Positions 652-20,319 of a stretch of 64,000 nt of DNA are shown one piece after another. Source of the stretch: Rhizodiscina lignyota (lineage: Eukaryota); the NCBI GenBank assembly GCA_010015805.1, contig ML978125.1, forward strand, positions 806,001 to 870,000, read 5' to 3'. The translations under genes were made by a program, and so were the position numbers. The notes below the pieces were generated by a model. That model made no database searches. It saw only the letters and a list, made by a program, of their open reading frames with translations, and was not told where the DNA came from. Each line of letters opens with the position of its first letter. Position 1 is the stretch's first letter.

Positions 652-3600
652 CTACTCGTTACTCGTGCTCGTTTCGCGGTTACCCTGACCCTCTAAGATC
701 CGGTTCAGCTCCATCAGCCGCACCGGCTTGGTAAGAAAAACGTCAATGCCGCTCGTGAATGCCTCATGCTTCGCTTCGTCGCTCGCGAGGCCCGTCAACG
801 CTACAATCTTTGCGCATGTGTGCTTCTGTTCGCCGCTCGTCGCGTGCTCCGGTGTCGGCACCTTCACAGCGCTGCCCAAGCCAACGACTTCTGCGCCTGC
901 CGTTGTATGAGCCGTCTCCTTTGCGTCGACCTTCGCTTCGGCGACTTCCTTCTCGTGTGCGCGGATCAGTCTGGTGGCGGTGAGTCCGTCCATGACAGGC
1001 ATTGTGATGTCCATGAGGACAAAGTCGAATGCGGTTGACGATGATTTGAAGGCGTTGACGGCCTCAAGGCCGTTTTGAGCGGTCTCGTAGGTGTGGCCTT
1101 TCTTCTTCAAGAAAGTCACGAGAAGCTGTGCAATGTGAGCAATGATCATTCTAAACAGAGCGGTGTAAGGGAAGAATAGGCGTCCATACCGAAAGATTTA
1201 CGTAATTGTCATCGACCATCAGCACGTTCAACTTCTTTCCGGTCGTCTTCCGCAAGTGCTTCTCAATAGGCTTCTTCTGCATGGGAGAACCGGTAGAGAC
1301 CGAGCCAAGCGACTGAGACAAACTCGATCCAGGAGGCACCAGTGGTGCAGACAGGTTAACATTCTCTTTCAGATCTGCCGCTGTTTCCGCTGCCAGTGGC
1401 CTCATGGAGTTCGGTGTGAGCATTGGCACGGATGGAATTTTAACATGCGCCATTTTCGTGTCCGGATTGATGCTCATCGAATCCATCTCGTTCACAAGTG
1501 CCCGCTCGATAGGCGGGCTTGGGGTAGTGGCTGGAGTAGAAAGGCAAGTCTGGAGCGCTTTCGCGAGCTTCCGGGGGCCACATGGCAGCTTGACGCACTC
1601 CGCTGGCTTCCTCCAACTCTTCTTGGAAGATGTGCATTTCGAGCTCACAAGCGCCGAATGAGGGCACAATACCAGCAGTGGTGATCCATAAGGAACGTGG
1701 CCGGCCGCGACTGCGCCTTCAGTGGCGATATACACATCCGCTGCCTTGCCTGGTCCTTGCACCTCAAGACCACACCACGTCTGGCATGCCTTGCTGAGTG
1801 AAGCCTGCAATAGGCCATCGGGTGGGAGTGCGAGATCTTTCTGCTCATCGAAGCCAACAAAAGCAACCGTCTTGGCTCTCGATTGGGATGCGAGTGGGTT
1901 TGGCAGCACTGCCTTTCCATTGTCGAGACTCTTCTCCAAATCGACCAAGACGGAAAACTCTGATCCGCAGCCCTTTTCGCTTCTCACATCGATGCGTCCA
2001 CCCATGGAACCGACAATCTGTTTGATGATGCTCAGGCCAAGTCCTGTGCCGGGACTGAGTGGGTCCTCCTGTGCGAATGGATGGAACAAGTGATCTCGCA
2101 AGTAGCTAGGCGACATTCCTCTGCCGGAGTCCGTAACCGTAAGGACAACTTGCATACTCTTCCTGCCCGTTACTGCATCGTTATCGACCGAAGGGGGAAA
2201 GCATTCGAGCTTCACTTTAATGAATCCGCTATCGGTGTACTTCAACGAATTGCCGAACAGGTTCATGAGGATGCGCCTCCAAGCACCAGGTTGAGTTCGG
2301 AAGTTCCAGCCATTTTCCGGGTTCTGAATCTCCACGATCACCTTTACGGGTTCATCATCATCAATAGCGTCGCTGGGTGTACTGTGCTCGGCAGCCGTCT
2401 CGCCTGCAGCGAATGGGTTGATGACTGCACTGGGTTGCAAAGGCGCCGTTCCCATCACGCTAGTCGCTCTTGGCCTAGAAATTGTTCCATCGCGCAGCTG
2501 TGTCGTCTCGTGCAGGTCGAGTGGGCTCTTGGAGCTTTTGCGGAACTGGAATCCTGCATACACGGTCTCTACGACCTCTTCAGTGAGAGTTGCAAGATCA
2601 ACGTCTTGATTCCGGATGTCTGAGTCTTTCGCGCTCGAGTCATATCCGGAAGGCGTAGCCTCAGACTGCGCTCTGCGCAAATCGAGCTTGGAGTCAGGCC
2701 CACCAATTCTTTGGGTTGCGTGCTTTGTTACATTGTTGATCTTGGCGAAATCCAGAACGTGGTTGATTGTATCGAGGAGCGTCCTTCCGCACGTCTCGAT
2801 GGTGCCTGCTAACTCGCGATGCCAGGGATTCATAACGATCTCTTCGGTCTCATCGCCAAGCATCAGCTCCACACACCCGAGGATACCATGTAACGGTGAT
2901 CGAAGCTCATGCGACACGCCAGAGATAAAGTCCGCCTTTGCGCGGTCTCGGCGCGCAGCGTCACACCTCGCAACTTCTGCCATGACAGAGTTTCCAAACG
3001 CGGCAAGATAAGCGAGCTCTTCACTCTCCCGGAAGACACGACGCTGGTCACATGTCCAGATGAACGCAGCAGCGAATGGACGGCCATTCGTGTGATCGAA
3101 GACGTATAAAGGAAGCATGACAAGCGATCGGGCCCTGGGGAGCAGCGTTGAGAGCTTGTGGACGTCGACATCGAGCTGAGAGGGCTGCTCCGATCCGGCT
3201 GAAACAGGCGATGAACGAGGAGAAGGATCGAAGTCGAATATCCTGCCGCGTGGATAACGCTGCAACAGTCCCTTTAAGCACTGTTCAGTCATTTTCCCAT
3301 CGTTTGACCAGCCTGTCGCTTGCTCTGAGAGCGAATATCCCAGCACTCCGCATGGCTTGTCGCCAGCCGTTGAAATCGTGCTTTGCCTTCTTGCTGCCTT
3401 TGTCGCATCTGAGTCTTCCACCAAGCCTCCAAATGTAGTGATGCTGCCATCGAGGAAGAGTGCACCATCGACTTCCGTCGACTCTCTCATGACACGTGCC
3501 GCTCGCCGGAAGACGGATGTGATATCGCTTGCACTGCTGTAGTCATTTTTGAAGCTCTTTGATGGCCGTAGCGATGGGGTGACAGTCACCGAGCTTGAAC

Positions 3601-4709
3601 TGGACGTTGATTGTGAGGATAGCGGTAAATCCACAGGCGGTTCCGAATCCGGTGTCGTCACTTTGCTTGTCATGCTCGACTGTGCAGAAGAGCCAGAGTA
3701 CGACAAGCCTGAGCTTTTGATGCTTGCGTCTGAGCTCGTCACCGCCGAAGACAGCGGCCTCGTAGATCCAAATCCCGCTCCAAATCCAGGATCGATTTCT
3801 CCCTCATAGCCGTCTGGGGTGTCCCCGCGGCCTTCTACAAATGCTCCTAGACCTCTAACCATCTTCCCCCATCTCCTCGAGTATTCTTCTTCCTTCACCA
3901 TCTCCATATGCCGCATCACTGTGACCGCCAACTCCTTCATAAACGCCATCTGCTCGTCTGTAATGCCCTCCGGTCTCGGCGTTCCATCCAGGACGCAGAA
4001 TGCCCCAATGTTGTGCCCTGCAGGACTGCGAATCGGCACCCCAGCGTAGAACCTCGCATGTGGCGCATCTGTTACATATGGCTGGCGGTTAAACCTCTCG
4101 TCCAGAGACAAATCGGGGATTACCAGTGCGGTAATATCTGTGGGATCTGCACCACCGGTGTGCGGATCTGGTGAGGCATAGACAGTCGGAAGTTGCACTG
4201 TCGTCTCGCACACCCACAGGCCTTTGCCTGTGATCTGACTGCCCCAACATAGTCCGTTCTCAGCTCCTGCAGAGGCCGCAGGGGCGGACGTGATATAAAC
4301 GCCGGGAGTGCTTTCAGCGAGGACATAGGCGCGGGTGCGAGAGAAGAAGGTTATGAGGCAGCGAGCCGCATTGAGCTTGAGGGCACCAAGTTGTGCAAAC
4401 GCGGTGAGAGTCGGATCTTGCGAGAAATGGAGTGGTTCATCGGAGGCTGTCGAGTCGGAAGTTGAGGGATTCGTGGAGAGAGGGAATGGGTGAGAGGACG
4501 AAGTGTGCAGGTACGGAGGGACGATGGGGGTTGCTGGAGTGGTCGGATGGTAGTATCTGCGGAGTAGAAGACAACTTAAAATGCTTGTATCGTTCTCGTG
4601 CGAATGCGTGGGCGGCGTCTGCTACGCCAGGAGCGCGCACATACCTGTAAAACTCCCTCTCCCTCTCGCGCTCGGTGATTTTCACCGTGCCTGGCGCATG
4701 CCGCCTCAT
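652..4709 (-). CDS. Hybrid sensor histidine kinase (GAF-HisKA-HATPase-degenerate REC-REC)
   Basis: ATG at 4709; introns 4644-4557 and 1189-1126. N-terminal EREREFYR and DPTLTAFAQLGALKL; GAF RFYAGVPI; H-box SHELRSPLHGI; N-box NLFGNSLKYT; G-boxes DSGRGM and GTGLGL; receiver VLMDITMPVMDG...FLTKP. Confidence 0.93.
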
Positions 4710-5564
4710 GGCGTGACTTTGTCGCTCTCAGCCGTGTCGCGTCGCCTCAGGCGTTCGTATTGGGCAGTATCGCGTCGCTCTCGACAGGTGGTCTTGGGAG
4801 ATCGTATGCGCGGAGGTGTTTCCGGGCAGAATTGTTTATGCAGCAAGACGTCACGGCCTCGGGCGAAAGCCTGCCTTCCCTGTCCTGCACGTTGCGCGAG
4901 AGCAAGAGCAAGGTCCAGGGCAAGGCAAGATCTGCTGTTCACCACCAACGCGTGCAGCCTCAATCGTTGCGTGAGCGATGAGCGATGAGCGATAAGAGAG
5001 AAGAAGGTCCGACCCGCGAGGAGAGAAGAGGACTAGCGCGTGTGGAGTGTCAAGAGCCGCAACTCGTGCTTTCTCGAGTGAATTGAAGGGTCTGCGAGCG
5101 CGGGATTAGTACGCGCCACGCCCAGCCAATGACGTAGGCCCATCCCTGCCCACGCCGGCCGGCGCCATCGGAACTTCAGGGACATCGGACATCCAGGTGG
5201 CCCTGCAATTATTCTGAAGACGCTGGGTGGACGGCGAAAGCTGTGGGAAAAGAGTCTTCCTCAACTTCGCTTCGCGCTCCACGGATGAGATTCACGGAGA
5301 ACATGTAGAGTGTGATATCATCGGCTCACACTGACACCCCAGGGACCCTTGGAGCAGTTGGAGTCAATTACCACAGGAATCGTACGGCCACAAACAAGAT
5401 GGATTTGTTCCCGTCTGTATGAATACAAGAGCAATTAGAGCGCCAACTTGTTGTGCTAACATACTGTCCCATTTCGGATATCGAGACATAAATGAAGTTT
5501 TTCCAACTGCCCACATCCTCATCACCACTCTAGCTCCAGCCCAACAGCTCTCCTCTCACTATGC

Positions 5565-7764
5565 TCAGTACTCCAGAGTCACCTTCTGCCCCTTCACTCT
5601 CCCGATCACAATACCCGGCGCATACTTTGGAATAACCTCGTCGTCGTGTAGCATCTCGAACTCCTCGCTGGCGTCCTTACCCATGTGGCTGTACAGTGCT
5701 TGAGGACCGCCTGCATGAAATCAGATAAGTGTTCTGCAAAGCAACAGTTGGAGAGATGGCAGACGACTTACCAGGATGCTCATCAACCCAGTCCGTCATG
5801 TCCAAAACAACACCTTTCACCGCAATCCATAGGTCATCCTTCTTGTTATGCTTGGCAACCTCCTCAAGCGTGTACTCCTTCTCCGGGACCTCGAACTTCT
5901 TGACCTCGCCCGGCTTGCTGACCTGTCCAGGGTCCTTGGCATCTGAACCCGCCTTTCCTACCACCGGTGCTGTACTTGCTTGAGACTGCTGCTGCGGCCT
6001 TGACGAAGAGCCCGAAGAGCTGCCAGAACCCCACTCGACTGATACCTTTCCAGGCTGCGAGGGGTCGATGTGAAGAGAGATTTGGCCAAGGCGCTGGGCA
6101 GCACTTGAAGCGCCACCAGAGAGAAGTTGCTGGAAGAGGTATTTCGATGCAGATTCACCGGCTACACGGCCGTAGACGACACAGCCCAGCAGCGACGAAC
6201 CACCAAGGCGGTTAGCGCCGTGCACACCACCAGCAAGCTCACCACATACGAAGAGACCATCGAAGGGCTTGCGGCTCTGTGCGTTCATGACCTGAGCCTG
6301 GTCATTGATCTCGATACCGCCCATAGTGAAATGCAATACAGGCTCCATTTCCGCAACGTGGAAGGTGTCGTTGATGTCGAAGGGGAGGTTGTGGAAGTAC
6401 TTCTTGCCCCAAGGATCCTTCTTTTTGCCGTCACCGATAGCGTTGTACTCCTGGAACGACTGTTGGAGCGCTTTATCTCCACACCCGATGGTCTTGGCGA
6501 GCTCAGCGCCTGACATCTTCTTCATCAGCCCACGACCACTGTAATGCCTAGTGTGGAAATCGAGGACGTTCGAAGCCTTGGAGTTGAGTACTAGCCGGAT
6601 AGGCCAGTTTCCCTTCTCCTTCTCCTCCCACATCTTGCCTGATACGTAGTCACGGTGACCGAGGTCGTCGCAGAAGCGCTGGCCCTTGGAGTTGAGCAAA
6701 ATACCGCCCTCGCCACGCAGAGCTTCTGCGGCAAGGAACTTCCACTTTGAACCAGGATCCTTTGGATCAACGAGACCAGTCGGATGGACCTGGACTTTGT
6801 CCATATCAATTGGGTTGGCGCCAATCGACATGAGCATCTTGTGGCCATCACCAGTGGCGTGTGCGCCGTTCGTCGTGGCTAAGCCAAAAGTATCTGGCCT
6901 GTGCTTCTTCAGGAGAGAGTCGTCCGTGAAATCTGCGGCATAACCACCAGTCGCAAGTACAACGGGGCCGTCAACAGTCGTCTCCTCGCCATTGAAAGTG
7001 TATGTGACGCCCGTTGCCTGGTTGCTCTCTGTGTTGACCTTGACCACCTTTGCCTTCTTGATGAGTTGTACTCGCTCCGGCTCGGCCTCCGCAAGCTCCT
7101 CGAACCGCTGCATCAGAGCATATGTAATAGCCATACCGGGGAACTTTGCGTCATGACCACGATGCGTGCGGGGTTGGGAGTGACCACTATTAGAAATTGT
7201 CAGCCTTCTTATTGCTCTGGAGCACTTGGAATGTCAATGGACATAATGCACATACCCTAACCGTGAAACGAGAGTAAGATCCAAATTGAACACATCCTGT
7301 AGCCATTCCACTGCTGCTGCAGACTTGTATGTCAACACCTTGATCAGATCCGGCCTCGCCTGTTCGCGCGCGGACTTGAGTGTGTCGTCGTAGAATTGCT
7401 TGACGCTGTCGGCGATTTTGAGGTCGACTTGCGTTCGTGTGAGAGCACCGTTGATACCGGACGTCGCTTTCGTTGAATTGCCTCCCATGAAGTCTGTTGT
7501 AGTTCCATTGTTCAGCTATACCGCAAACAAAGCTGGGGACGGACAGCTCGGTCACTATGCGTCGAGGGATTTGGGAGCAAGCGAGAAAGACGTACTGTTC
7601 TTGTCAAGTAGAAGAACATTTCCGCCGGCCAAATAGATCGTATGAGCGGCCGAGAGACCAGACACTGGGATCTGTTAGATGCGCATTCCGTCATAGACCA
7701 AAGCAGTCGGAAAGGTAAACGTACAACCAGCCCCGACTACAATGACTTTCTGAGTCTCTGCCAT
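5565..7764 (-). CDS. OSM1: Soluble FAD-dependent fumarate reductase (flavocytochrome c family) with C-terminal cytochrome b5 domain
   Basis: Multi-exon. VIVVGAG FAD motif, GGNSTKATSGING, QVHPTG, EALRGEGG, HFTMGG, GVHGANRLGGSSL; b5 domain EEVAKHN...HPGG (spliced)...FEMLH; TGA at 5565-5567. Confidence 0.9.
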
Positions 7765-9722
7765 CTTGAAACGATGCTCAAATAGGAGAAGAGAGGGAAG
7801 TGAGGGTCGTAGGCGAGAGTCTGGGAAAGGTGGAGTGAGGTGAAAGGACTTGAAGGGCTCGCGACTCTTTTAGATGGTAGGATGTCGGTGCTGCCGCAAA
7901 TGCCTCGGCTCAAAGGACACCGGCCAATCAGTCAACAACTTTCCACGCAGTAAGACGTCGAAAGCCTCCTGAATTTTAGGTACCGCGGTTTTCCGTGCGA
8001 AGGAGAATTGGTACCGATTCGGGTGTCCTCGTGAGGGTTTAAAGGCCCGTGAGACACGAGGCGGAGCATGTGAAAGACCTCTCTGCGCGGATTGCCACGA
8101 CGAGCAACGGCCGCTTTCCCCGCGTGACGTTTCTGGAAGTCGAGGCCGCTGCCGATTGTGTAATTCGTGAATCAATGACGGCAATGACTTTTTCGTGCGG
8201 TCAGCCGATCTTCTGTATCCGTGATTCGCGGGTTCGACCTCAGCTCCCCATCTTCCCCTTGCAGCCTCATTCGACGCGTGGCATGTGAAAGACAGATGCT
8301 TTTTCATCCTCTTCTGAATGACTCTGGCCTCATTGCAATGCTTCTCTATTCACCGTTTGGAACGAATTCCGCTCTCAACGGAGCGGATAAAGGCGGATAA
8401 GGAGGAGGACACTGGAACCTTTGTCGATACCTCCATGCATACTGGAACGCGGAGAGCTGTCCGTCATTTAAGGTCATGTCATTTCTCTGCTCTACCCCAT
8501 ACATAGTGACCCCACGAACAACTATCAGCTGGCACTACTGATGGTTCAGATCAGTGCCGGTAGTAATGTGGCACAAGAGACAATGGAAATGTATCACACC
8601 AAGCGAGTTGAATGGTTTGATAATTGTCTTGAAAAGTGTAGAAGAACATTCAGCAGCAATTTCGAACGCCTATACCTCATCGATACGTGCCAGCAAACGT
8701 CCTTTCGGGCACGTGCGAAGTCTTTCGTGATCATCTCTGGAGTCATCAAGACATGATCCTGCAAGTATTGACGAATGCATGAAGACCAGCAAGTCCATCA
8801 TATAAACATTCAGAGTTGGCCATGCTCCGCAGAAAGCGTCCTTATTAGGAACATTTTGAGAGCTATAAGCACTTCGTTGCTGACATGATAGTGGAGGAAG
8901 CAGGTTCCGATGCCAAAAAGTTGGCCACAGCCTTCAAGACATCGAGCGACAAAAGTACATACATATACATTCCGAAGAACATACAATTACGCTTTCAGCG
9001 ATGGTCTCACCTACTTTGAAGAAGCAGAGCTGCTCGGCCATATCGAGGCGTTACAGACGCCTTCCTCCGCTAACGTAGGGATTCCGCTTCCTTTCTACGC
9101 CATTATGGGATAGAGTGGTGCATGGCAACTCCTCCACTATGTCCTCTGTGCGCTGGACAAGGAATAGCATGCACAACAATTTTATTCCGTGAATATTAGC
9201 GGCCCACCAGGCCGCTGAACATTGGATGCGAAGAAGCTAGTCGTTGGATGGCGGGAGGCGGCCCGCCTCCATTTCTGGCTAACCTTTCTCTCGAACATCG
9301 ATGGGTTAGAAAAGTTCTGCCACCAAACCCTGACACCTTCGAAGCCGTATTACCCGTCGACGACTCAGCAGCGGTATGTTCGCCTGAATCTAGCAGTCAT
9401 TCCCGAAAGGATGTATAAGCTCCATTCTGGAGTTCCAGCGGCAGGAGAGGTTAATCACAAGGTCCGCCAGAACATCCCCGGACGTGCATGTGGATTTGAA
9501 TGGGACCATTGCTTCGCGAGAAGATTAGCAACGAATGCATGGCGGTACGAGAATTAATGAATGTAGCACAGATCATTTAAGAAGTCGGCCTGGCTTTAGT
9601 AGCTAAGACACCTAAGAAGAAACTCTATTCATATCATCAACCTTGTCTCCGCGGATTCAATACTCTCGCTCACTACCATTACTGCTCTGAAGAGACTAGC
9701 CTGCACTACCTAGTTGCCCAAC

Positions 9723-11191
9723 ATGTTTAGTCGTACCCTCTTGGAGAGGCTCGAAGAACTCTGCAACATCGATGTTGACGACGTCGACACGGAACTCATC
9801 AGATCCCTCCTGATCAAACCGCACAATCGTCTGTAGGATGCTGCAAGCTTTCTTGGGGCCAATAAGTTGGATTCAAGCTACTAATGTGCCTCTTGCAGAA
9901 ACTTCAAACCAAGCCGTCATTGCGAACGCATTGTTCGAGTCTCAAAATGAAACGCTATTGGCTGACATGGTCGAGAAATATGGCAAGGAGGGCTGGGAAA
10001 AGGTATTTGACAATGCGGTGAGCACCATATCGTCTACCTAGCTCTTATGCTGTTCTTGTATTCTGATTTGGCATGTTCTTCGTCCTCAGACCGTACAGAT
10101 GTGCGCTCGAAATGTCCCCTATCTGTCAGGGCACGTGCTTGTTCAAACCTCTCCTCGCCACATCAACGACCGTACAGCAATCATCGACCAGTGCTACTCA
10201 TTTGCGAAAGCGTTTGACGAAGCCGGGGTCCCGAAAGACCGTTTTGCTATTAAGTTGCCCTTCACTGGATCCGCTGCTTCTGCTGCAGTTCAACTGAATA
10301 CCGAGGGCATCCGCACCCTCGCTACAGCAGTATTCGGACTCGAGCAAGCCCTCGCTGCAAGTCAATCAAAATGTTTGTTTATAAGCCCATATTACAACGG
10401 TGAGTCGGACATGGAAACGATGTGCGATGTGAGGGAATGGAAATTATTGGTATTCTAATCTCGACTGTAGAAATTGCGGCGTATGAGGACGTATCACTTC
10501 GCATTAACAACCCAGATCCAGCTATGAATGTAAGCCAACTACGAGCATGGGTGAAATACAGAAAGTGACCATCACGCCAGCATCCCATGTCCGCGCGGAT
10601 TATTCACATGTTAGAGGCATTCGCAAAAGAATACGCCGAGACTGGCACAGAACAACCCGTGATGGTAATCGCAAGGTAACTCTTGCTGCAGTCCCTGATT
10701 GCGTTGAGACTTGAAATGGGGCAATGGTTTCTCCTTTCTCGTTATTAAATAAACGCTGGTCATTGGCTAACTACGCTATCTCCTCCAGTCATTTCGGCAT
10801 CGCCGAAATAATGGCAATGCCTGAATTGGGCTGCCATCATGTTACCATTCGCGCAGACAATCTTCGCGCTCTGATGCAGACGCCATGCACGCTTCCGACC
10901 CTGTCTGCGCGACACGCCAAGCCAAAACATCCGTATGCAGAGATTGCGACGCCGGACCGCCTAAGGTGTTTGTCGAAGCTGGATCCGCTTGCGGGGCCGA
11001 ACTGGGACGGGATATTGGCTTCCTCCAGAAAAGTAGACTACGTCGCTAATGGTGGCGAGGCTCTCGACAATGCTATCCATGAAAATCCAGTCATGAATAA
11101 GAGGTTTAAGGATGCGATGGAGCTCTTCTTGAATGCGGAAGAGAAGGCGAGGGTGGGTATTGAGAAGGCAATCGCAAAGTGCTGGGGTTGA
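9723..11191 (+). CDS. Transaldolase/fructose-6-phosphate-aldolase family protein with aldolase-type active site
   Basis: ATG 9723; introns at about 9829-9898, 10018-10089, 10400-10470, 10530-10580 and 10676-10788. Motifs DVDDVD, HNQTSNQ, GHVLVQTSP, Schiff-base IKLPFT (AAG 10252-10254), GIRTLATAVF, ISPYYNEI, MVIAS, GCHHVTI. Confidence 0.88.
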
Positions 11192-11324
11192 TCAGAGATA
11201 TTTCCGTGTTGGAACCAGATAGATTCCCACAGCAAGTATATGTATGACGTCCACGATATTCAGCCAGACGAGATATATTCTGCGACTTTCCGTATCACTC
11301 TTCGCTTTGGCTTTAAGGGAATTA

Positions 11325-13549
11325 TCAAATTTCGTGACTAGTGCGGAGCCTTTGCTTCCTGGCGAGCGTGCTGGCAATCTCCAGGGCACATTCGATGCTT
11401 GATCCTGGGATCGCCCAAGGTTTGAGCTGGTTGACAGCAAGGGCCTGGAGAGTTTCAACATCCGGAATAAATTTCTTGAGTGGATTGCATAGAGCCGCAA
11501 TCGAGAGGATTAATACACAGGTAAGGCAACTATATGATACCAAAGATTAGGTCCATGTTAGTCGGTGAGTTGATGGCATGTACCATTTTAAAAATAAAAT
11601 AAGATGCTGCGAGGAACATAGTACTGGATTACTGCTTACCACTGGGCAGTGCTATACGTATATGACGACCTCTCTGAGAGTACGTGGTCTGCCGTTTGCA
11701 GGAAGAACCGACAGCTATTCAGACATACGCTGCACATATCGAGGACGGACGGAGGAATGACGGCGGCTTGTTCGGGTGCCAGCGAAGTCACATAAATGAC
11801 AAAGGGCCGGTATATGACTTGCTTTGCGGACCAGTACCGCAAACGTAGAAGACATGCTTGTCGGCTACCGACCGGGTCTGCCGCAAGATCGGGTTTTATC
11901 ACATCCGGCAAGGAGTCATACCAGGTTTCGAGCTGGTGATTGAGTTCCGCGCAAACTCTTAAGAGCGAAACATCAGGGTTAGGAGATGGGGGCAAGGTCG
12001 AGGATATCACGCTTAAGAAGCTGCCTGTGTATATGGAAATAGTGTCCGTGAAGTAAACTGCGTGATGGACGCGATTCAGTATAGACCGGGCAGGTATTTC
12101 TGCAAGGAAAAATAGAGTTTCGGGGTTTGATGAGTTGCTGAATTTCGGGAATGGCATCTTGTCGACCAATGGCTCGATGCCACTTCTTGGTTGATGGTAC
12201 TCGGCCAGGATATCGCTACTCAGTTCAATAAGTATTTGGTGCATGATACCAACCGACACAGGAACTCACCATTCAATAAGGAAACACGCCCAGCTTATAC
12301 GGATCATGTCTTGGGCATGAGCATCATCTGGCGGAATAGCGCTGCACCTCAAGGTATGTCAACAGTTTCTGCATGAGCAAAGGAGGCGGGTCTCTCACTG
12401 AATCAAGATCTGCTGTATGCTCGTGGAGGCCATGTGGATCGATTTCCAAGCCATCAAAGGCTCCACAGCATAAGTAAAATAGAGCGCAGATAGGACGAGA
12501 GCTTGTGATAGAGTTATATCGCCGCTGAACGATACTGCCCAGTGAGAAAGTAGGATTCGGAAAGCAGCACAGATGAGTTCAGCACCAGAGAGCCTATCAG
12601 ATCTATCTGGCGAGTCCGGCGCCGTCGCTCCCAACGCTAAAACCGTCAGAATCAGTGCAGACGGGATGTCGAACTTGAATCCTCGCTGCATGATATCATG
12701 GTACTGAGCATAGAGTTCGTCTTGGTCAAATATGGGATGGAATGAGTGAACGGAGATAAAGAACCGCTCCAAATATTCATCCCCATCCTCTCGTTGGACG
12801 GACGGAAGATTAATTGGCACTGCTGTCCCTGTTGGTCCAGCCATCAGGTGCGCCGAAACTGAAGGTACTCGGCTGTCCTCAACCATAAACAGAAACTCTT
12901 TTGGGAATTCCCCAAGTAGACTTCGCATCTGCGGCAGTACTAGTAGATTGCTATTGCTTGTTTGATGGCCAAGAGGGATTGTGAGTGGGGGAAGTGCAAA
13001 GGAGTCTGCAGTCTCCGGTCCTGGTGGTTGGATCCCACTCGACCGATTGATATCCCAAGGAGTGTTGACAGACGGTGCATTTTCCTCTTGTGAACTTCTC
13101 GATAGAGCAGGAGCGGGAACGGTGTCCAACTTCGAGCCATGAGGAGGTGTGGTTGATGTTGCTATCGATTGATGTTGCTGCAAACTCTTAATCGCTGCTG
13201 AGTGATCTCTGAGGAGAGACTCAATATTTTCCAAATGATGGAGCTGGTTCTCTAGCACATCTAACCGAGTATGTCTAAATCGATTCAGAAACCAAAAGCT
13301 ATTCAAGGGTCTCGTAGTAGAGGCCATAGGGTCTACTTACCTCTCTAAAGTAGGCTCCTGATAGTTGCACTCTAGCCCTTTCCTTTCACAGGTAGTACAT
13401 GTTGGCGTTTTACTGTCACAGCGGCGTTTCCTTAACTTCGTCTGAGCCAAATCCTAGAGAATGAATTTGCGAAAGATGCGCGCTGTACGTACTTACCGCA
13501 GTCGACAGAAACTACACGCTACCGCTGCTCTTTTACTAGTCGAATCCAT
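11325..13549 (-). CDS. Zn(II)2Cys6 transcription factor with fungal-specific middle homology region
   Basis: ATG 13549; spliced CSFCRLRKRRCDSKTPTCTTCERKGLEC (C-x2-C-x6-C-x6-C-x2-C-x6-C); FFISVHSFHPIF; LRLRYWSAKQVIYRPF; several GT-AG introns. Confidence 0.9.
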
Positions 13550-14299: not shown

Positions 14300-15343
14300 A
14301 TGACAACTCCTACTGCTTCGAAATCATCGATGAACGGGAACATCTGGGATCGTTTTTCCCTGAATGGGAGGAGTATCATAGGTAACGTCTTCGGACTCCT
14401 CAGCATCGCCCACTCCATAAATAAAATATCTGACTTTGCTATTCAGTCACCGGAGCTGTCGGAGGAATGGGTGTACAAGTCGTCAGAGGCATCCTGGAAG
14501 CGGGAGGTGACGTGGTATGCATCGACCGAGTGGAAATACCAAACGCGTCTGATTGGGGTGAGTAACGCTTCCAAGCTTTCGTTTTGATGCCAATCTGTCC
14601 GCCGAGAATACTGACAAATAAATCCACATAGAGAGGTCAGAAGCGATAGCATCAAGCAGCGGATCCAAGTTGTCTTACTACAAATGCGACGTTTCAGATG
14701 TCGAAGGGACTTACACCGTCTTTGAAGCTGCTCTATCACAAGCTCGTTACCCACTGAGAGGCTTGGTAACGTGTGCGGGAATCGGCTGGGTTGGTCCTTC
14801 GATTAGCTTTCCGATTGACGAAGCTCGACGTATCGTCGAAGTCAATCTTCTAGGCACTTTGATATGTGCGCAAGCGGCTGCGCGCCTGGTTTTCAAGAAC
14901 CAGTTCTCCGCCAGCTTTGTCTTTATTGCAAGCATGAGCGGCTACATCGTTAACAAGGTTAGCCACCATCGATGTGCGGTTGGCACATTAGAATAAACAA
15001 AGCTAACATGCGGGTCGAATAGGGCTCACCAAACACGGCGTACGCTGTTTCGAAAGCAGGAGTGCATCAGATCACACGAAATCTTGCCTCTGAATGGGCC
15101 TTTTCTAAAGATGCGCCCTCGATCCGAGTTAACTCCATTAGCCCGGGCGTGATCAGAACGCCAATGACCTCCAAGGAACTTGCAAAGTCCGACTTGGAAC
15201 GGATCTGGACGGAGGAAAGTATGCTGAAGCGCCTTTCAGACCCCGAGGATTATCAAGGCCCTGTAAATTTTCTGCTATCTGATGCAAGTGCGTATGTGAC
15301 TGCTGCGGACTTGCGGGTTGATGGGGGCTACACTGCATGGTAA
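14300..15343 (+). CDS. Short-chain dehydrogenase/reductase, polyol dehydrogenase/ketose reductase-like (D-arabinitol dehydrogenase/sorbose reductase group), probably NAD(H)-preferring
   Basis: Spliced VTGAVGGMG; VVCID (acidic residue ending beta2); IASMSG; YAVSK catalytic YxxxK; NSISPG; DLRVDGGYTAW; 3 introns. Confidence 0.88.
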
Positions 15344-18684: not shown

Positions 18685-19027
18685 TCACTCTCCAATGACA
18701 TATGTACAGCCCTCTGAACCCATCCAGACCTCATGTTGCCTACCAGCATCAACATCAACCCTAGCGCCAGGTCCGAACGTCTCTTTCGCAGGCTCTTTGT
18801 CTTTGGGATACGTGATAGTGAGGTCGCCGCGAAGAATCAAATGTGTGGTGAGTCCGCTGTGTGAGTGAGGGGGATAGTACGCATTACTGTGAGCAGTTAA
18901 TCTCTCATATGTACGTGTAGAAGCGCAGCAGAACGAAGACTTACGGCCCGTCTGTCCAGGTGAAGACGTGTCTGAAGCCCCACGATCGCACGTCTGCTTC
19001 GGCCTCGCGTTGAGACTTTCCAGCCAT
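18685..19027 (-). CDS. Small cupin-fold protein (~94 aa)
   Basis: Exons 19027-18945 and 18886-18685: MAGKSQREAEADVRSWGFRHVFTWTDGPNAYYPPHSHSGLTTHLILRGDLTI...VDVDAGRQHEVWMGSEGCTYVIGE. HxH...H cupin pattern. Absent from the ORF track. Confidence 0.85.
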
Positions 19028-19679
19028 CTTGATACCTTTATAGGTTCTGGTGCTCAGTAGAATAATCAAAAGTGACGGAGGTGGATGGGATGCGGCAACG
19101 AATCATAGTGTCAGTCACGCCGCGCGCCAACCCCGCACCCAAGCAATGCGGACACGTGCGGAGTGCTTATGGGTACCTGTGTACCGGATCTGCGGTACAT
19201 AGTTCCGGAAATTTCGGTGCGTGGCAAGCCTAGTCGTTCGAGCACTCGACTTTTCAAATCTCTTAATTACCACGCTAATCTATATTATCGCAACTCTAAT
19301 GTATTCTCACATGAACAACCAATATACCAATGTCTCAGTCTCTCGACAACCATTTTCTTCAGAGGCCAGACTGTTTGGGGCCAAGTTCTTTTATGGCGTT
19401 CGTCCACCAGTAAGTAGGGAAGGGTCGCACACATCGACGATCGTTAACATTGCGCGTGACGGGGCGCGTTTGGGAATCACATCGGCGCAAGGAAGTACTA
19501 TGGTAATCTTCGAATCAGACCGAATTCAAGGTTTTCCGTATTTTCAAGGATGAGACGTCATACGCGGTAATGTTGTATGCCCCGGGTATTTAAGTTGAGG
19601 CAGACTCAGACATGCAGACAAAACAATTCGGTTTAATATCATACATAAACATCATATTATCTGAAAGGAAATTATCACC

Positions 19680-19995
19680 ATGGACTCTCAAGGCGCCAAG
19701 TCGGTCATGTCTGAGGACATGAAAGACCTTACACGCGGCGAAGAAGATATTTCCCATTCCGTCCAGGGCCACAAGGCTAACCTCTCAAACCCAAGTACGA
19801 TAGAGTGTTTCATATTCTTTACTTAGTGATACGAGTGATTGCTAATAGCGCAAAGATACATCAGAGAAATCCAAAGCGGCCAGTCGTGAAGCCATCAAGG
19901 CTATGGGAGGAGATGCAGCCCATTACGGAGACGAGGAGAATCCAAGGACGGAGAACGCTGCGGAGAACTTGGAGGGAAGCCAGGTTGCGAAGTAG
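19680..19995 (+). CDS. Con-6-like conidiation/stress protein (~84 aa)
   Basis: Exons 19680-19794 and 19856-19995; spliced GHKANLSNPNTSEKSKAASRE resembles the Con-6 motif; hydrophilic. Confidence 0.75.
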
Positions 19996-20319
19996 AAGAA
20001 CTGTAGCGAGCGAAGGGACATAGGATGAGACCAACTGTTGAGGTATTGGCGGACCTTAAATTTGAATTAATTGATACCAGAAGCAGGAACATCATCGAAA
20101 ATTGCGTTCATGAGAGCAGAATGTGCAACAAAATAGTCGATTTGAATTCTACATATCAGAGCATTTGACTCCTCCAGATATGGATCGCTATGAGCACCAC
20201 TATTGGTAACGCTGGGGAAGAGCTTAGAGCAGTGACTTGATGAAATAAGGATTCAAACGAGACTCCAAACTTGAATGAAAAAAACGCCAGATGTCCCATT
20301 CCAGGATGGTCTCGGTATC

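Follow-up and report, generated by a model that had tools for sequence, protein, structure and literature searches.

The window analysed here, a stretch of 64,000 nucleotides from contig ML978125.1 of the dothideomycete Rhizodiscina lignyota, carries a gene of the TAL/FSA family, and the question that this locus raises is whether its product is a transaldolase or, as the initial annotation had proposed, an aldolase related in action to fructose-6-phosphate aldolase (FSA) that accepts free sugars. We consider it very probable that the protein is not an ordinary transaldolase, and likely that it acts on unphosphorylated sugars. The reading that we favour, with moderate confidence, is that the large transaldolase barrel serves here as the scaffold of a class I (Schiff-base) aldolase, which would cleave an unphosphorylated 2-ketose (most likely 3S,4R) in a kinase-free polyol route.

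Gene model and active-site residues

The gene comprises six exons (9723-9828, 9899-10017, 10090-10399, 10471-10529, 10581-10675 and 10789-11191) and five introns of 51-113 nt, all of the GT..AG type, and the spliced reading frame is predicted to run without an internal stop. The predicted 363-aa product, of about 40 kDa and soluble-looking, is identical to the deposited R. lignyota protein named 'aldolase' (P0003). The residues discussed below, with their counterparts in E. coli TalB and FsaA (both from MG1655), are located as follows.

9723..11191, + strand: TAL/FSA-family aldolase gene, six exons, 363 aa
9771..9779, + strand: Asp17 to Asp19; Asp17 is extra (TalB Val15, FsaA Tyr4), Asp19 corresponds to TalB Asp17 and FsaA Asp6
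9907..9909, + strand: Asn39 (TalB Asn35, FsaA Asn28)
10144..10146, + strand: Gln94, codon CAA (TalB Glu96, FsaA Gln59)
10252..10254, + strand: Lys130, the Schiff-base lysine (TalB Lys132, FsaA Lys85)
10318..10326, + strand: Leu152 to Thr154; Leu152 (TalB Asn154, FsaA Leu107), Thr154 (TalB Thr156, FsaA Thr109)
10384..10392, + strand: Ser174 to Tyr176; Ser174 (TalB Ser176, FsaA Ala129), Tyr176, codon TAT at 10390-10392 (TalB Phe178, FsaA Tyr131)
10399..10472, + strand: Glu179 codon, G (10399) / AA (10471-10472), split by the intron 10400-10470 (TalB Arg181, FsaA Arg134)
10674..10795, + strand: Ser230 to Phe232; Ser230, split by the intron 10676-10788 (TalB Ser226, FsaA Ser166), Phe232 at 10793-10795 (TalB Arg228, FsaA Lys168)

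Pairwise HMMER alignments and MAFFT gave the same register for all diagnostic residues of the window aldolase against both references, and misalignment was rejected on this agreement. The residue changes that the initial annotation had described, Glu96 to Gln, Phe178 to Tyr, Arg181 to Glu across an intron and the loss of Arg228, were all recovered, as was the retention of the Schiff-base lysine and of the N-terminal Asp and Asn (Lys130, Asp19 and Asn39), and the Gln plus Tyr pair that it had called the FSA signature is indeed the one carried by FsaA. Further sites, absent from that annotation, are Leu152, the TalB-like Ser174 and the extra conserved Asp17; Thr154 and Ser230 are kept. In TalB the phosphate is held by two Arg and one Ser (PMC3962226), and in the window aldolase both arginines are replaced, by Glu179 and Phe232. 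The annotation's statement that R181E in TalB helps non-phosphorylated acceptors finds support in the same source, which gives an affinity for D-glyceraldehyde improved at least 2-fold.

Residue 179 cannot be Arg with any splice acceptor, because its split codon begins with G before the donor at 10400. Moreover, of the family's 26 metagenome loci, 12 have an intron-free Glu codon at this site, the remaining loci breaking at the same place, and on both grounds mis-splicing was rejected as the source of Glu179. A pseudogene was likewise rejected, since the frame is intact and the catalytic residues are conserved.

Conservation, fold and family membership

Among 41 close homologues, Lys, Leu and Thr are invariant at the diagnostic sites, Gln, Ser and Tyr are found in 40 each and Glu in 36, and none carries Arg or Lys at the R181 or the R228 site; since Gln, Tyr and Glu and the loss of both basic residues are kept family-wide, the residue pattern is not due to chance. 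Asp17 and Asp19 are each present in 39/41 close homologues, and in 112/120 and 113/120 members, respectively, of a second subfamily represented by Aspergillus niger TalB; Leu152 and Thr154 are found in all 41 and all 120. A profile search returned 122 representatives at 50% identity with E < 1e-30 and 889 with E < 1e-10, the weaker of which include ordinary transaldolases; ten representatives were looked up, and those with an organism name were asco- and basidiomycetes. In a set of 102 rows of 290-420 aa, made of close homologues and profile-search matches (5 canonical, 97 non-canonical), Gln, Leu and Tyr occur together in 88 of the 97 non-canonical rows, with Arg or Lys in two of them at the R181 site and in two at the R228 site.

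A FastTree tree of 76 of 104 rows, from which 14 near-duplicates had been dropped along with 14 rows that were fragmentary or came from faulty models, placed the window clade (18 rows, support 99) within a clade of 30 rows (support 100), apart from the clade of the family member P0117 (14 rows, 99) and from the canonical transaldolases (6 rows, 100); FsaA, with its long branch, was not placeable. We also observed a 324-aa metagenome protein (P0131), sister to the canonical transaldolases (support 99), which has Gln and Tyr, yet also Asn154 and Arg181, and is possibly an intermediate or a large-type sugar-phosphate aldolase.

The product scores 90.6 bits against Pfam PF00923 (TAL/FSA family; cut-off 27). 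It stays far below the cut-off of TIGR00874 (transaldolase, EC 2.2.1.2; 69.9 versus 396.2 bits, the TalB control reaching 555) and below that of TIGR00875 (FSA; 35.2 versus 245.95 bits, the FsaA control reaching 279). Of the transaldolase residues Glu96, Asn154 and Phe178 none is present, and Gln94, Leu152 and Tyr176 in their place reproduce the catalytic signature of FSA (Gln59/Leu107/Tyr131); at the transaldolase phosphate site (Arg181/Ser226/Arg228) Glu179, Ser230 and Phe232 are found, so that Arg134 and Lys168 of the FSA phosphate region have no counterpart either. The identity of a canonical transaldolase was rejected on the TIGR00874 score and these residue changes. As for the names, the expectation of an automatic transaldolase label came true: automatic names are 'transaldolase/aldolase', and the ESM Atlas label is transaldolase only. 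The R. lignyota genome holds a separate canonical transaldolase, in which Glu, Phe and the two Arg are all present, and searches of it with PF00923, P0117 and P0045, whose counts are lower bounds, found no third family member.

An AlphaFold2 model built with 36 homologues (predicted local distance difference test 90.4, predicted template modelling score 0.90) places the key residues in or just after the strands 91-94, 127-132, 151-154, 172-174 and 225-228, with Lys130 in strand 127-132; the modelled barrel thus shows the strand-4 Schiff-base Lys and the Asp, Asn and Thr of transaldolases. Foldseek gave template modelling scores of 0.71-0.76 (by query) against the large transaldolases of E. coli, Francisella, yeast and mammals, and VIA-align gave Z of 35-36 against large transaldolases (root-mean-square deviation 2.4-3.2 A over about 300 residues) and Z of 19 against FSA. 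In the model, the fold is therefore of the large transaldolase type with its C-terminal helix, not that of FSA. The structural check that the initial annotation had called for was made on the fold and on the positions of the strands, and to that extent it agrees.

With TalB the window aldolase shares this fold and Asp17, Asn35, Lys132, Thr156, Ser176 and Ser226; it differs by Glu96 to Gln, Asn154 to Leu, Phe178 to Tyr, Arg181 to Glu, Arg228 to Phe and Val15 to Asp and by two insertions. With FsaA it has Gln59, Leu107, Thr109, Tyr131, Lys85, Asp6 and Asn28 in common, and a nearly identical strand-5 motif, but it is of 363 aa rather than the small form of about 220 aa (FsaA, 220 aa), has Ser for Ala129 and lacks Arg134 and Lys168. 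Its best sequence match in the PDB, by a small margin over the wild type, is the engineered TalB F178Y/R181E (3KOF). Relative to the engineered enzymes, which also include TalB E96Q/F178Y (4RZ6, 9QPK) and FSA A129S, it combines E96Q, F178Y and R181E with the Ser of A129S; it differs from them in being natural and conserved across fungi, in having lost Arg228 as well and in having its own gene cluster. Judged by its sequence, the window aldolase is FSA-like and engineered-TalB-like in its predicted action and falls outside both TIGR00874 and TIGR00875.

The fold and the residues bear on two alternatives. The protein could be a free-sugar transaldolase, which would hand over a dihydroxyacetone (DHA) unit of an unphosphorylated ketose to an aldose with no release of DHA; the large transaldolase fold with its C-terminal helix (Z 35-36 versus 19 for FSA) and the TalB-like Ser174 and Ser230 speak for this, but Tyr at position 178 converts TalB to an aldolase and Gln94, Leu152 and Tyr176 stand together throughout the family (the 88 of 97 rows above), and we regard it as very unlikely. 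It could otherwise still be a sugar-phosphate enzyme, be it an odd transaldolase or a fructose-6-phosphate aldolase of eukaryotes, in which basic residues of the insertions have taken over as the phosphate site. Such an enzyme would account for the retained Ser230, the insertions may have such a role, and databases and A. niger network models label the family transaldolase. Against it, the R181 site mostly holds an acid or amide (Glu in 36/41 close homologues; Gln or Glu in 117/120 of the A. niger TalB subfamily) and the R228 site mostly a non-basic residue, the sole invariant basic column of the alignment (A1) is the catalytic Lys130, an insertion Arg being Trp in several members, and the linked enzyme described below is a dehydrogenase, not a kinase; we hold this alternative to be highly improbable.

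Gene neighbourhood

Two genes follow the aldolase gene in the window.

11639..13549, − strand: Zn2Cys6 / Fungal_trans transcription factor gene (PF04082; six-cysteine motif; 3' end unmapped)
14300..15343, + strand: short-chain dehydrogenase (SDR, P0202), polyol-dehydrogenase-like, exons at about 14300-14381, 14447-14557, 14632-14957 and 15023-15343

The regulator gene lies tail-to-tail with the aldolase gene and divergent from the SDR gene; the open frame 11195-11509 (−) was rejected as its tail. In Paecilomyces a run-on model (P0030) fuses aldolase and regulator, its transcription factor part being 37% and 53% identical to the window regulator. Loci of the window clade itself were absent from the metagenome scan (best identity 29-48%), and for this reason the synteny of the regulator within the clade is based on this one other genome.

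An orthologue of the SDR is adjacent to the aldolase, by locus tags or accessions, in 15 of the 15 assemblies where both are comparable, a count which covers those assemblies with an SDR of the same assembly among the matches and which adds three further fungal classes. Ten of them, which we take to belong to the order Chaetothyriales, are Fonsecaea pedrosoi, F. nubica, F. erecta, F. multimorphosa, Cladophialophora immunda, C. carrionii (two), Exophiala spinifera, E. dermatitidis and E. xenobiotica, and the other five are Aspergillus terreus, Trichoderma citrinoviride, Pleurostoma richardsiae, Hypoxylon sp. and Xylogone sp. By gene order, the aldolase is thus clustered with the SDR and, in the window, with the Zn2Cys6 regulator, which is a new observation.

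The SDR is of the classical type, and its solved relatives (E 1e-25 to 1e-35) are a mixture that includes galactitol, mannitol, gluconate-5 and polyol dehydrogenases as well as carbonyl reductases. Its strand 2 ends in Asp in 20/20 rows in which the motif was found, of 39 matches. An Asp at this position is a mark of the use of nicotinamide adenine dinucleotide (NAD) and suggests oxidation, and the window SDR is accordingly predicted to be of the NAD type. Some of its orthologues are automatically named gluconate 5-dehydrogenase or D-arabinitol 2-dehydrogenase, and these names could point to a less usual unphosphorylated ketose as the substrate of the aldolase, such as a sugar acid (5-keto-gluconate), a deoxy- or 3R-ketose or a precursor of a secondary metabolite; the extra Asp17 and the changes beside Asn39 may shift specificity in this sense. 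The names are automatic, however, Glu179 would disfavour a terminal carboxylate, and Asp19 and Asn39, which set the C3 geometry, are kept; we rate this as the least probable of the alternatives weighed here.

A sister clade of the window clade was surveyed in 13 non-duplicate metagenome loci of at least 4 kb, several of them close kin, with 120 of 199 open reading frames (ORFs) scanned. A divergent sugar-transporter gene, labelled as a generic major facilitator superfamily member in the ESM Atlas, stands beside the aldolase in 7/13 loci and a tail-to-tail bHLH-like gene in 9/13 (by Pfam match in 2 and via BLAST in the others), and an SDR 31-33% identical to that of the window was found in 2 of the 26 metagenome loci. 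At query position 227, the donor-pocket site of TalB Met223 and FsaA Leu163, many sister-clade members (L007-L028) have Lys and the window clade has Val or Ile, so that the donor may be different. In one locus (L019:325-3192, −) a GH31 glycosidase gene lies beside the transporter-aldolase-bHLH module and may release the sugar that the module uses, and in another (L029:3400-5817, −) a GMC oxidoreductase gene lies upstream of a distant family member.

Proposed reaction and related fungal systems

In FSA, Tyr131 acts as a proton shuttle with Gln59 and Thr109, and Arg134, Ser166 and Lys168 make up the phosphate region (PMC13259622); TalB F178Y is a DHA aldolase giving 3S,4R products and FSA A129S raises the efficiency with DHA 17-fold (PMC3962226). 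In the window aldolase, Lys130 would bind the ketose carbonyl as a Schiff base and Tyr176, with Gln94, Thr154 and a water molecule, would serve as acid and base, the Schiff base then being hydrolysed so that the enzyme would work as an aldolase and not as a transferase. Asp19 and Asn39 would hold the C3-C4 hydroxyls, Ser174 would favour DHA as donor, and Glu179 and Phe232 would remove the phosphate pocket. The module might be induced by its substrate, the SDR oxidising a polyol to a ketose with NAD and the aldolase splitting the latter into DHA and an aldehyde without any kinase. DHA would then be trapped by DHA kinase and enter glycolysis; the R. lignyota genome has two DHA-kinase (Dak1) loci (G000:C13:826129-827055 and C2:981060-982138). 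Our first guesses for the substrate are L-sorbose, sedoheptulose (from volemitol), L-galacto-heptulose (from perseitol) and L-erythrulose, followed by D-xylulose and D-fructose. To our knowledge, none of the first four has a dedicated fungal kinase. The free-sugar aldolase that the initial annotation had proposed fits the signature, its conservation, the separate transaldolase, the automatic names and the SDR linkage, from which we infer activity, substrate and direction.

A comparable logic is found in the fungal aldolases GaaC (2-keto-3-deoxy-L-galactonate) and LkaA (L-2-keto-3-deoxyrhamnonate), which also end a kinase-free sugar catabolism in an aldol split. Those enzymes belong to other families, take keto-deoxy acids and release pyruvate, whereas DHA from a neutral ketose is predicted here.

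Several points weigh against this reading. In the retro-aldol sense the reaction is uphill and has to be pulled. The ketoses formed by several characterised SDR relatives are of the 3R type (D-ribulose, L-xylulose, L-tagatose), which would be at odds with 3S,4R; a non-adjacent SDR paralogue is also present in three genomes, and with 10 of the 15 syntenic assemblies being close relatives the adjacency amounts to about six independent cases. Around the aldolase, 33 ORFs of the window were scanned and gave no transporter or kinase family. Identity varies with the alignment used, from 21 to 27% for TalB and from 20 to 23% for FsaA; Ser230 is kept although it is a phosphate ligand in TalB; and the window clade is marked by two insertions, a long one behind Glu179 and a C-terminal one with basic residues that it was not possible to place in the model. 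To these is added the xylulokinase phenotype of A. niger given below.

A. niger TalB (An07g03160/NRRL3_04473) is 58% identical to P0117 and 24% to the window aldolase. It shares the Gln/Leu/Tyr signature, the extra Asp17 and the replacement of both arginines, here by Gln and Thr (Gln102, Leu162, Tyr186, Gln189, Thr230), and differs in belonging to another subfamily, in its regulation by XlnR and in lying near xylulokinase rather than an SDR, talB being two gene numbers from the xylulokinase gene xkiA. D-xylulose has a 3S,4R diol. In this subfamily, whose search gave 433 matches including relatives at canonical distance, none of 120 members has Arg or Lys at the phosphate sites, and Ala occupies the TalB Ser176 site in 118/120. 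The deposited An07g03160 model (P0304) deviates from other A. niger models at residues 25-39, without the Asn35 motif, and looks mis-spliced in comparison with the 329-aa model P0398. The network of A. niger lists the protein under EC 2.2.1.2 (PMC6231085); its gene is 8.9-fold higher on xylose than on maltose (PMC2639373), belongs to the XlnR regulon (PMC12538316, PMC6854810) and is up in a xylulokinase mutant on xylose (PMC8140973). Deletion of xkiA abolishes growth on xylose and arabinose (PMC12744346), which disfavours TalB as an efficient xylulose-cleaving bypass despite residual growth of the deletion strain on some substrates (PMC12538316). Residual growth is also reported for T. reesei xki1 mutants (PMC6454604) and N. 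crassa NCU06142 is a lowly expressed predicted transaldolase (PMC13158570), neither being tied to the family.

The xkiA phenotype is relevant to the direction of the reaction. The enzyme might work in the opposite sense, joining DHA (or hydroxyacetone or glycolaldehyde) to small reactive aldehydes to give a free ketose, which would be reduced to a polyol by the SDR or assimilated through a kinase. FSA-type enzymes run preferentially in the sense of aldol addition, and the position of talB near xkiA would fit a route from DHA and glycolaldehyde through D-xylulose to xylulose-5-phosphate, as would the lack of rescue of the xkiA deletion on xylose. The strand-2 Asp of the SDR, as a mark of NAD use, points instead to oxidation, and the sister clade is linked to a gene of the sugar-importer type; we consider synthesis unlikely, and retain cleavage of a free ketose as the preferred reading.

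On a wider scale, we put forward as an evenly balanced proposal that fungi hold a broad group of transaldolase-derived aldolases for unphosphorylated sugars, with several subfamilies, which would define kinase-independent pathways of polyol and ketose cleavage and would also be natural DHA aldolases for free aldehydes, comparable to those obtained by engineering TalB and FSA. Its members would be the window clade (SDR and Zn2Cys6 regulator), the sister clade (sugar transporter and bHLH) and the A. niger TalB clade (near xylulokinase, with XlnR), and fungal metabolic models would miss these pathways since they count the genes among the transaldolases of the pentose phosphate pathway. If true, fungi would have a new kinase-free way to split sugars and polyols, and many 'transaldolase' annotations would be reassigned, that of TalB in the sugar network of A. 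niger among them. Aldolases that take unphosphorylated substrates are highly desired for biocatalysis (PMC3962226), and the family would offer hundreds of natural candidates. A literature search, with most subscription papers outside its reach, found no characterised fungal member of the family, no characterisation of A. niger TalB and none of the phrases xylulose, ketose or sorbose aldolase; transaldolase is not mentioned in PMC7873862.

Elsewhere in the window, a histidine kinase and a FAD_binding_2/cytochrome b5 (fumarate-reductase-like) gene lie upstream of the aldolase (1151-7770, −) with no sign of cluster membership. Two short intron-containing genes were recognised by eye at 18685-19053 (−), without Pfam match, and at 19681-19998 (+). 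The region 20452-62493 is ordinary, with GH43, TLC-domain, amino-acid permease, PBP-like, epoxide hydrolase, alpha/beta hydrolase and P450 genes and, after the P450 gene, housekeeping genes (ATP synthase gamma family, topoisomerase I, TAF2, Nop14, thiolase, Uso1 and XRN).
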